51,441 nucleotides of DNA from an uncultured bacterium (GTDB lineage: Bacteria > Spirochaetota > Spirochaetia > Treponematales > UBA12059). Shown one piece after another: positions 2,912 to 7,916 of this stretch. Below the pieces are notes generated by a model. It was not told where the DNA came from and searched no databases. It worked only from the letters and a program-made list of their open reading frames with translations. The stretch lies in NCBI GenBank assembly GCA_964293355.1, contig CAXZAJ010000001.1, positions 1 to 51,441 of the forward strand, written 5' to 3'. The translations under genes were made by a program, and so were the position numbers. How positions within the stretch are numbered: position 1 is the first letter of the stretch; every line of letters begins with the position of its first letter.

Positions 2912-4284
2912 TACAAAAAGACAAAAAGGGAGGAGTCTCCCCCCTTGCTCCCCCGGTCCTGCGAATCTCGGACCGGGCCTCGGTTCCTGCGTCGACTGCG
3001 GGGTCTTCCGCTACCCCCCTAGGTGTGTTGCCGGCGGGATGGAGATTTTTACCGATTGATCTAGTCACAAACAATCATGACTCAAAACGCCGTCCGGTTA
3101 AAGGATCAGAAAGAAAATCAGGGCCTTATCCCTATTATGGTGCATCTGGAATTGTAGATTGGGTTGATGACTATATTTTTGATGGCGAATATCTACTTGT
3201 TGCTGAAGATGGTGAAAACTTAAAGACCACACAAACACCAATTGCTTTTCTTTCCATGGGTAAGTCATGGGTAAATAATCATGCACATATTATCACAGGA
3301 AATGAAAAGGCACTTACTAAGTATTTACTGTACGCATTACAGAATATGGATATCAAGCCATATTTAACAGGGGCTGTAATGCCCAAGTTAACTCAGGCAA
3401 ATTTAAACAGTATTCAAATATTATTGCCACCACTTCTACAACAACAAAAAATCGCCGCCATCCTCTCAGCCCTCGACGACAAGATCGCCCTCAATCGTGC
3501 CACCAACCAGACGCTCGAACAGATTGCCCAGGCTCTCTTCAAAAGCTGGTTTGTCGACTTTGACCCCGTCCACGCCAAAGCCCGGGGCGAACAACCCGTC
3601 GGTATGGATGCCGCCACCGCCGCCCTCTTCCCCGACAGTTTTGAAGAATCGGAGCTGGGGATGATTCCGAAGGGGTGGGAAGTGAAGAAGTTGTCGGAAT
3701 TGATACAAATCACTGGTGGAGGTACACCCAAACGGTCAGAAGAATCATATTGGAATGGCAATATCCCCTGGTACTCCGTAAAGGACGCACCTAATGAAAG
3801 CGATGTATTTGTCATCGACACTGACGAACATATCTCTGAAATAGGACTTAAGGAGTCTTCAACTCGACTGCTCTCGGTTGGTACAACTATTATTTCTGCA
3901 CGTGGGACTGTTGGAAAGTTGGCTTTAGTTGCCACCCCCATGTGTATGAACCAATCATGTTATGGAATACTTGGAAATAATGGAAGCAGCAACTGTTATA
4001 ATTATTTTAATCTTAAATTCGCACTTTCTATGTTACAAGAAAAGGTTCATGGTGCTGTATTTGATACAATAACAACAGCAACGTTTGAAACGTGCTTTGT
4101 TGTCTTTCCTGGAATCAAGTATACCGCTCAATACGAGTCGGCCATTCAATCGGCAATGAAGCAGATTGAGACCAATGTACGACAAAATACTGTTCTAAAC
4201 AATATCCGCGACTCCCTGCTTCCCAAGCTCCTGTCCGGGGAAATATCGGTGGCTGATGTTGCCTATCAGGGTTCAAAAAAATGA
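2908..4284 (+). CDS. hsdS: Type I restriction-modification specificity subunit HsdS (two target-recognition domains)
   Basis: Two TRD-like halves (LPAGWRF..., IPKGWEV...). Central conserved spacer LLPPLLQQQKIAAILSALDDKIALN...FKSWFVDFDP and C-terminal LLPKLLSGEISV. The true start may be GTG 3025 or TTG 3028 rather than ATG 2908 (see finding). Confidence 0.9.
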   Translation: MIQKDKKGGVSPLAPPVLRISDRASVPASTAGSSATPLGVLPAGWRFLPIDLVTNNHDSKRRPVKGSERKSGPYPYYGASGIVDWVDDYIFDGEYLLVAEDGENLKTTQTPIAFLSMGKSWVNNHAHIITGNEKALTKYLLYALQNMDIKPYLTGAVMPKLTQANLNSIQILLPPLLQQQKIAAILSALDDKIALNRATNQTLEQIAQALFKSWFVDFDPVHAKARGEQPVGMDAATAALFPDSFEESELGMIPKGWEVKKLSELIQITGGGTPKRSEESYWNGNIPWYSVKDAPNESDVFVIDTDEHISEIGLKESSTRLLSVGTTIISARGTVGKLALVATPMCMNQSCYGILGNNGSSNCYNYFNLKFALSMLQEKVHGAVFDTITTATFETCFVVFPGIKYTAQYESAIQSAMKQIETNVRQNTVLNNIRDSLLPKLLSGEISVADVAYQGSKK

Positions 4285-7200: not shown

Positions 7201-7916
7201 ACAACATTACTGAAACCATCAAGTACCTTCAGGACAGCCCAGATGTTACGGACGAAGAACGCATCGCTATTGAATGGGCTTTCCTGGCCATGCTCGATGA
7301 GTACAGTGGTACGCGACCCAGAACACTGGAGCGACAATTAGCCAATGATCCTAATCTCTTTTGTGAGCTTATTCGCTTGATATTTCGCTCCAAGAATTTC
7401 CAGCAGGAACAAGAGCTTCCCGATGAACAAAAGAAAAACACGGCCATAAACGCCTATCGTTTGTTGGACAACTGGAAAACGATTCCAGGAATGCAAGAAT
7501 CCGGAGTTTTTGACGCTCAGTTTTTCGAAGAGTGGTTCAACCAAATACGCAAATCTACGGCTGAGTCTGGCCATCTTGAAATTGCTTTGAGCAAGGTAGG
7601 CGTTGTTCTGGTGCATGCTCCCGCCGATCCAGAAGGATTATGGATTCACAAGGCAGTCGCCAAAGCTTTGAATGGAGTAGAGGCCGATAGTTTGAGGCAA
7701 GGATACCAAATAGGGATTATGAACAGTCGTGGTGTCCACTGGGTTGATCCATCAGGTAAGCCAGAACTTGATTTGGCAGAAGAATATGATCAAAAAGAAA
7801 AAGCAATACTTTCGCAAGGCTACCATAAGTTCGCCCAAACACTCCGGGGTATTGCGGAGAATTATAGGGAAGACGCTGACAGAATACGGCGCCAATACGA
7901 AGGTGACGACGAATAA
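4281..7916 (+). CDS. FRG-domain protein with ~950-aa C-terminal alpha-helical region of unknown function (1211 aa)
   Basis: The N-terminal ~260 aa carry the FRG-domain hallmarks [35 protein letters not shown] and [11 protein letters not shown]. The rest has no motif I recognise. The start overlaps the hsdS stop (ATGA). Confidence 0.85.
   Translation: [1211 protein letters not shown]

Follow-up and report, generated by a model that had tools for sequence, protein, structure and literature searches.

The gene at positions 4281-7916 of a 51,441-nucleotide stretch of spirochaete DNA encodes a 1211-residue protein in which an N-terminal FRG domain is joined to a large alpha-solenoid. The stretch (positions 1 to 51,441 of contig CAXZAJ010000001.1 in assembly GCA_964293355.1, from an uncultured bacterium of the Treponematales lineage UBA12059) is referred to here as the window, and the gene lies within a Type I restriction-modification (RM) operon. 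We propose that it encodes a self-contained sensor-effector defence protein that operates independently of any nucleoside triphosphatase (NTPase), and we place the probability of this reading at roughly 0.55. The open reading frame (ORF), on the + strand, starts with ATG, contains zero internal stops and is intact over its full length. A first-pass annotation, made from the letters of the window, had put the gene forward as a single-gene defence effector, and a large FRG protein inside a Type I operon does make a promising defence gene still to be characterised. Two points need amending: the FRG domain is not the defining part of the protein, and the operon also holds a HEC-04-like ATPase, a RhuM/PDC-S05 gene and a Septu pair. 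It is the C-terminal solenoid, not the FRG domain, that is the conserved, widespread and family-defining module.

The family profile matches the window protein over residues 337-1210 with 1341 bits, and homologues are 41-50% identical to it over 870-927 residues. In a search of ~5.8 billion protein clusters, hundreds of proteins aligned with residues ~285-1211 at 41-51% identity, and they do not align with the FRG part. The AlphaFold2 (AF2) model, built with 60 homologous sequences, is an all-helical solenoid with a mean predicted local distance difference test (pLDDT) score of 87.3, and the region contains 11.5% leucine and 3.0% tryptophan, in agreement with the earlier description of a helix-rich, leucine- and tryptophan-rich remainder that might be a HEAT/ARM-like scaffold. 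Comparison of the model with the PDB using Foldseek returned generic HEAT/ARM solenoids only (CAND1, Pds5, importin-beta and CRM1; E 5e-5 to 1e-3) at template modelling (TM) scores of only ~0.2, such that the resemblance is generic, and the sole defence protein among the matches was Avs3 at a negligible TM of 0.09. Sequence searches were equally sparse. Pfam on the whole protein at E 0.01 matched the FRG domain alone; overlapping 300-residue segments of the C-terminal region, searched at E up to 10, gave a best E of 0.14 and listed no HEAT or ARM repeat profile even at that threshold; NCBIfam gave no match up to E 0.1; PADLOC matches were confined to the FRG part; and PDB sequence searches with the C-terminal region, both as a single protein and as a profile, were empty. 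A hidden NTPase was considered and rejected, as a Walker A motif is absent and two GKT triplets (one at residue 349) are not conserved. The earlier statement that the remainder carries no recognisable enzyme motif is thereby upheld, and neither Foldseek on the model nor the segment-wise Pfam search assigns the C-terminal region to a well-characterised system. Invariant loops of the solenoid include HDPGGxWxNRPxNSL (residues ~565-579) and [15 protein letters not shown] (residues ~1148-1162).

The module is not confined to the window. Its profile retrieves 6733 clusters at 50% identity (E <= 1e-3), or 3776 at E <= 1e-30, and relatives occur in 268 species-representative genomes from Proteobacteria, Chlorobi, Cyanobacteria, Firmicutes, Bacteroidetes, Planctomycetes, candidate phyla and methanogenic archaea. 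Such a patchy spread over bacterial phyla and archaea at 41-50% identity is as expected for mobile defence genes. The family has no entry in Pfam, NCBIfam or PADLOC 2.0 and no PDB relative; the family, its breadth, its series of effectors and the FRG chimera were not found in the resources searched, with a literature coverage that was incomplete.

What precedes the solenoid varies from member to member. When the regions before the module were clustered for the 150 best family representatives, 70 carried an unannotated domain of ~250 residues, 31 a second unannotated domain of ~340 residues and 29 no N-terminal domain, and the remaining 20 carried other domains in small groups or as single cases. 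The dominant ~250-residue domain has the motifs GGGGxxFE, TDDLIV and LLGQxKH, in that order, with invariant E21, D61, D62, Q81 and K83; no match to it was found in Pfam, PADLOC or the PDB, and in a PADLOC search of eight homologues the members of this type matched no model. The E..DD..QxK motif suggests that this domain may be nuclease-like. The rarer domains were identified by Pfam as SIR2_2, TIR_2 (twice), PNP_UDP_1, GT4-conflict, DUF4062, Abi_C, SMEK_N and SLFN_AlbA_2, so many of the N-terminal domains belong to families linked to defence or biological conflict. The SIR2-bearing member, P0110, matches the SIR2 protein of PDB 8in8 (E 3.5e-29), which we take to be a short-Argonaute SIR2-APAZ NADase (NAD+-consuming enzyme), as well as the PADLOC models for SIR2 associated with prokaryotic Argonaute. 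In the window protein, the FRG domain fills the slot held by these other domains in relatives and is joined via a linker. Moreover, forms without an N-terminal domain are split genes: in all three cases examined, an overlapping upstream gene encodes the N-terminal domain, which is of the dominant type in two (77-88% identical to the fused versions) and of a rarer type in the third. The two modules can thus exist apart and yet act as a pair.

The sensor-effector reading is based on this combination of a conserved module, interchangeable N-terminal domains, split forms and a defence context. The solenoid would sense or regulate and the N-terminal domain would execute. More specifically, the solenoid may keep the N-terminal domain inactive until an infection-derived cue binds, and the FRG domain, once released, would damage the cell or the invader. 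Co-transcription and translational coupling with hsdS would ensure that the protein is produced whenever the Type I enzyme is, and it would add a second layer to the defence.

Systems of this kind, in which an RM operon harbours an effector joined to a helical sensor, are already known, and the window protein can be compared with the closest known systems. DSR2 couples a SIR2 NADase to a large helical sensor, which recognises a phage structural protein. It resembles the window protein in its plan of an N-terminal NAD-directed effector followed by ~900 residues of helical repeats in a single gene without an NTPase, and the solenoid family does include the SIR2-bearing P0110. However, no Dsr match was obtained in PADLOC, PDB sequence searches were empty, no DSR2 chain was present in the Foldseek top 50, and the SIR2 domain of P0110 is of the short-Argonaute-associated kind and not of the DSR kind. 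The Avs/STAND proteins also carry swappable SIR2, TIR, nuclease-like and HEPN effectors on a conserved repeat-containing sensor, whereas the window protein has no NTPase domain whatever. A DSR2-like or Avs-like sensor was rejected on these sequence and fold searches.

The FRG hallmarks that the first-pass annotation had seen at the N-terminus proved genuine. Pfam PF08867 matches residues 44-139 with 74.8 bits (cut-off 25), the AF2 model of the domain has a pLDDT of 81, and in an alignment of 29 sequences (the window protein and 28 relatives) R48, G49, Q112, H113, D122, R183, Q187 and G189 are invariant, with the motifs FRGQ, [14 protein letters not shown] and RLVAQEGLF sitting on invariant columns. 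The PADLOC PDC-S15 model PDLC04934 matches residues 8-286 (E 9e-79), aligned only up to profile position 302 of 416, and 12 further PDC-S15 models also match. The FRG half is thus already catalogued, as an unvalidated candidate of the PDC class, a class that goes back to the survey in which Payne et al. applied guilt-by-embedding (bioRxiv 10.1101/2024.01.29.577857), and the window gene shows the same-strand embedding in a Type I RM, BREX or DISARM operon expected of PDC-S15. The nearest FRG relatives (36-55% identity) are proteins of ~400 residues that combine FRG with a T1RH-like_C domain (PF11867), a domain that also occurs at the C-terminus of HsdR, and FRG relatives range in length from 254 to 467 residues. 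Their genes are ATGA-coupled after hsdS and stand ahead of hsdR, as the window gene does. The backbone of one such locus, L084, is nearly the same as that of the window (HsdM 91%, AAA_15 ATPase 75% and HsdR 89% identical). The window protein differs from this typical PDC-S15 form in that a solenoid of ~880-930 residues takes the place of T1RH-like_C, for which Pfam gave no match anywhere in the protein, and in being three times longer.

Some features of these related loci may be recorded here. The copy of the AAA_15 ATPase in L084 is at the same place as that of the window. In the FRG+T1RH-like_C operons at L081:6364-8004 and L084:3878-5542, HsdS bears an N-terminal Polbeta/NTP_transf_2 nucleotidyltransferase domain and a 140-residue NTase_sub_bind gene lies just upstream, a pair that is MNT/HEPN-like and fused to the specificity subunit; the window HsdS is without such a domain. 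At L059:12864-13997, a gene of 377 residues between the solenoid gene and rhuM combines Abi_C (HEPN) with a sub-threshold T1RH-like_C match (E 0.05), and hints that a broader class of proteins pairing an effector with an HsdR-C-terminal-like domain exists beside FRG+T1RH-like_C.

The FRG and solenoid homologies meet at a defined place. Homology to the FRG+T1RH-like_C proteins stops at residue ~275 and homology to the solenoid family begins at residue ~285, within a linker in which residues 285-311 have low predicted confidence. The window gene is thus a unique chimera, built from two cassettes in competition for the hsdS-to-hsdR position, and its FRG domain derives from the FRG+T1RH-like_C (PDC-S15) lineage of that slot. 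No second FRG-solenoid fusion was found among ~5.8 billion clustered proteins. This singleton architecture, together with a solenoid that diverges more than any other in the sample (nearest neighbour at 50% identity versus a median of 53.8% among the others), could mean that two same-slot cassettes were joined in a dead-end recombination event or by misassembly, and that the product may be non-functional. We give this explanation a slender chance, since the ORF is uninterrupted, every invariant column of both modules is retained, the two parts join exactly within the linker between the domains and an identical protein is recorded from NCBI, ENA and Logan. Furthermore, each half has diverged from its nearest relatives to a similar degree, as would be expected of one old lineage sooner than of a recent accident.

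The ATG at 4281 shares the sequence ATGA with the TGA of the upstream hsdS ORF 2908-4284, as the first-pass annotation had stated, with the identity of HsdS supported by Pfam and PADLOC. A survey of genomic context fetched 80 loci, of which 70 had a visible upstream gene and were informative. The solenoid gene directly follows hsdS in 12 of the 70 and directly follows the BREX gene pglX in 5 (BREX genes confirmed with PADLOC), and 12 of these 17 loci share the window's overlap of exactly 4 nt. The survey of neighbours thus finds the solenoid recurring after hsdS or pglX, and the complete FRG-solenoid architecture was seen once. The first-pass annotation took the overlap to tie dosage to HsdS; that tie is a presumption, and the observation is the recurrence of the 4-nt overlap with hsdS or pglX across the family. 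Other immediate upstream neighbours are HmaC (one locus), SoFic and PDC-S02, and split two-gene forms are also found between pglX and pglZ. About 50 of the 70 informative loci have no adjoining RM, BREX or Hma gene and lie instead in other islands or on plasmids. Among the individual loci, the solenoid gene of Vibrio parahaemolyticus is immediately preceded by a gene for a 1269-residue SIR2_2 protein (L085:5970-9779) and has GmrSD_N and AAA_15 genes nearby, a Brocadia member is located inside a toxin-antitoxin island, and a member on a conjugative Shewanella plasmid stands beside Abi and Sie genes. Overall, the family context is the guilt-by-embedding pattern of Payne et al. (bioRxiv 10.1101/2024.01.29.577857).

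One alternative hypothesis is that the protein guards methylation-based immunity in the manner of PrrC or Ronin, such that the solenoid docks on HsdM2S (on PglX in BREX, on Hma elsewhere) and the effector stays silent until a phage anti-restriction protein disables the complex. The prrC gene of the EcoprrI locus lies at the same position as the window gene, flanked by hsdS and hsdR in a Type I locus, and Ronin and PARIS likewise recur in Type I and BREX loci (bioRxiv 10.1101/2023.04.06.535777; PMC12707154). In the solenoid family, about a quarter of the informative loci have hsdS or pglX as the immediate upstream neighbour, in most cases overlapping by 4 nt, and both the HmaC neighbour and the split forms between pglX and pglZ fit a guard. 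The fusion of the same FRG domain to T1RH-like_C in close relatives is also in its favour. The C-terminal region of HsdR contacts the methyltransferase core, and a solenoid in place of T1RH-like_C could be a functionally equivalent tether. However, the majority of family members are not linked to RM, BREX or Hma genes, so that methyltransferase docking cannot be obligatory and a guard role cannot be general, and many autonomous defence systems are likewise embedded (Payne et al. 2024). In addition, direct binding of acidic DNA mimics such as Ocr is unlikely for a solenoid that is itself acidic. The protein also differs from PrrC in being without a P-loop, ABC-ATPase or anticodon-nuclease domain, and from Ronin and PARIS in that it is no small membrane toxin and has no similarity to AriA or AriB. 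We consider a guard role unlikely.

The close packing within the operon and the coupling to hsdS or pglX could also be taken to indicate an accessory or alternative restriction subunit, that is, a scaffold that brings an extra catalytic domain to methyltransferase-bound sites, or a regulator of restriction alleviation. The nuclease-like signature of the dominant N-terminal domain and the annotation of a distant branch as regulators would be in line with such a function. It is nonetheless improbable: RM or BREX linkage is absent in most members, the operon already contains a complete HsdR, and the repertoire of SIR2, TIR, PNP and HEPN domains is one of suicide or depletion effectors and not of DNA-restriction subunits.

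The distant branch just mentioned (24-28% identity, ~1370 residues) is located on plasmids, starts with HTH_3 and is annotated as a helix-turn-helix (HTH) regulator or HigA antitoxin; its Rhizobium member is followed by a hypothetical gene of 1281 residues. The occurrence of such relatives on conjugative plasmids, and of some loci near integrases, recombinases and toxin-antitoxin genes, raises the question of whether the family is a non-defence gene of mobile elements, such as a regulator or a module for addiction or maintenance, that rides in variable islands. This is very unlikely, as defence genes overwhelmingly predominate among the immediate neighbours at the informative loci, the N-terminal domains are classical immune effectors, and zero homologues were found in 50,697 phage records.

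Against the sensor-effector reading itself, several points must be weighed. The FRG domain has been predicted from sequence by Aravind and colleagues to be an NAD+-consuming enzyme of the ADP-ribosyltransferase (ART) superfamily (PMC9503650), the sole mechanism for FRG found proposed in the literature searched, and the presence of SIR2 and TIR in the same N-terminal slot fits that proposal as circumstantial support. The fold searches did not reproduce the ART/NADase assignment and do not speak against it either: Foldseek with the AF2 model against PDB and BFVD gave nothing at E <= 0.001, the ART-like matches had low probabilities (TreTu 0.16, Tpt1 0.09 and a viral PARP domain 0.06), and a profile search of FRG against PDB sequences was empty. 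The earlier remark that FRG biochemistry awaits characterisation agrees with the literature searched, in which no characterising paper was found. PDC-S15, moreover, has the status of a candidate only. With a pI of about 5.1 and a net charge of -30 to -55, the solenoid is strongly acidic, which disfavours simple binding of DNA or of DNA-mimic proteins and names no ligand. The HTH_3 branch indicates that not every member need be a toxic effector. Lastly, the fusion has a single occurrence in the databases searched, so its presumed functionality is judged from conserved residues.

The FRG-solenoid chimera ties a domain for which the literature searched gave no biochemical characterisation to a scaffold that elsewhere bears SIR2 and TIR. 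Should the family be a defence system, it would constitute a large and taxonomically broad class of single-protein sensors without an NTPase, in which the natural N-terminal swaps and split forms mark the sensing and the killing part. The recurrent coupling to hsdS and pglX would likewise provide a test case for co-expression, and possibly guarding, of restriction systems by embedded genes. We also entertain, as an unlikely extension, that the solenoids are a class of NTPase-independent sensors plugged into Type I RM, BREX and Hma systems, monitoring these systems or phage inhibitors and firing any of about a dozen interchangeable effectors; the chimera would then show FRG to be functionally interchangeable with the SIR2 and TIR NADases and so offer a direct way into FRG chemistry.

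The coordinates of the gene, its parts and its neighbours, and of the distant plasmid relatives, are collected in Table 1.

Table 1. Features of the FRG-solenoid gene and its operon (window coordinates unless a locus is named).
Feature	Position	Strand	Description or basis
FRG-solenoid gene, complete	4281..7916	+	1211 aa: FRG domain, linker, alpha-solenoid
FRG domain, PDC-S15 type (aa 1 to ~275), presumed effector	4281..5105	+	Pfam, PADLOC, alignment, AF2
Junction/linker (aa ~276-336)	5106..5288	+	homology ends/starts; low-confidence residues
Conserved alpha-solenoid module (aa 337-1210), presumed sensor/regulatory scaffold	5289..7913	+	profile, AF2
Start/stop overlap ATGA (hsdS stop and gene start; translational coupling signature)	4281..4284	+	
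hsdM, 5' end cut by window edge	8..850	+	family match
AAA_15/AAA_21 ATPase, 513 aa	1108-2649	+	PADLOC HEC-04, E 1e-50
hsdS, Type I specificity subunit	2908..4284	+	Pfam Methylase_S E 2e-41; PADLOC Specificity_I E 2e-120
RhuM/PDC-S05 fragment, 162 aa	7952-8440	+	family match
Septu ptuA	8434-9720	+	PADLOC
Septu ptuB	9717-10319	+	PADLOC
hsdR, last gene of operon	10316..13459	+	Pfam/PADLOC match
Distant HTH_3-solenoid relatives	L095:4612-8730, L096:152-4264		plasmids

The operon reads hsdM, hsdS, FRG-solenoid gene and hsdR, on the + strand throughout, and the interval from hsdM to hsdR additionally holds the HEC-04-like ATPase, the truncated RhuM/PDC-S05 gene and the Septu PtuA/PtuB pair. A + strand scan for promoters and terminators found no above-background signal dividing the FRG-solenoid gene from its neighbours. 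The GC content of the island is 43-48%, excluding the hsdM fragment at the left edge (57%), and that of the rest of the window is 60.5%. The gene had been described as the most AT-rich block of the island, which holds for the FRG-coding part (lowest GC, 0.426) and does not hold for the whole gene, whose GC of 0.451 is level with that of hsdS (0.452) and ptuB (0.449).

The RhuM/PDC-S05 ORF of the window covers just the first 54 of 252 Pfam positions, and in related loci a RhuM of 306-346 residues stands between the solenoid gene and hsdR. The start of ptuA precedes the stop of the RhuM fragment by 7 nt, and the ptuB/hsdR start overlap is 4 nt; given these overlaps and the short RhuM, the 3' part of rhuM seems to have given way to the Septu pair. 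Since several related loci have a full-length RhuM gene after the solenoid gene and before hsdR, the order hsdS, FRG-solenoid gene, rhuM and hsdR is ancestral, and Septu was inserted into this arrangement.

A further gene recurs in solenoid-bearing Type I and BREX operons. This cluster, c5, comprises genes of 470-580 residues with SLFN_AlbA_2, HATPase_c_4 and a winged helix-turn-helix and is present in 8 loci (e.g. L045:12706-14121 and L049:3904-5616), where it either follows the solenoid gene or stands between brxC and pglX. An obligate partnership was rejected because its positions are variable, and c5 is probably an independent embedded gene.

The right boundary of the island is sharp (window 13459-14200), with hsdR at 48% GC followed by the ORF 13479-14138 at 65.8% GC, which encodes 219 residues without a family match and is itself followed by mlaE-like host genes. 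An mlaE-adjacent insertion site common to the window and locus L090 was rejected, the MlaE proteins being only 30% identical. Elsewhere in the window, positions 26000-35000 contain a series of + strand ORFs of 536-758 residues with an unusually high AT skew (0.2-0.3).

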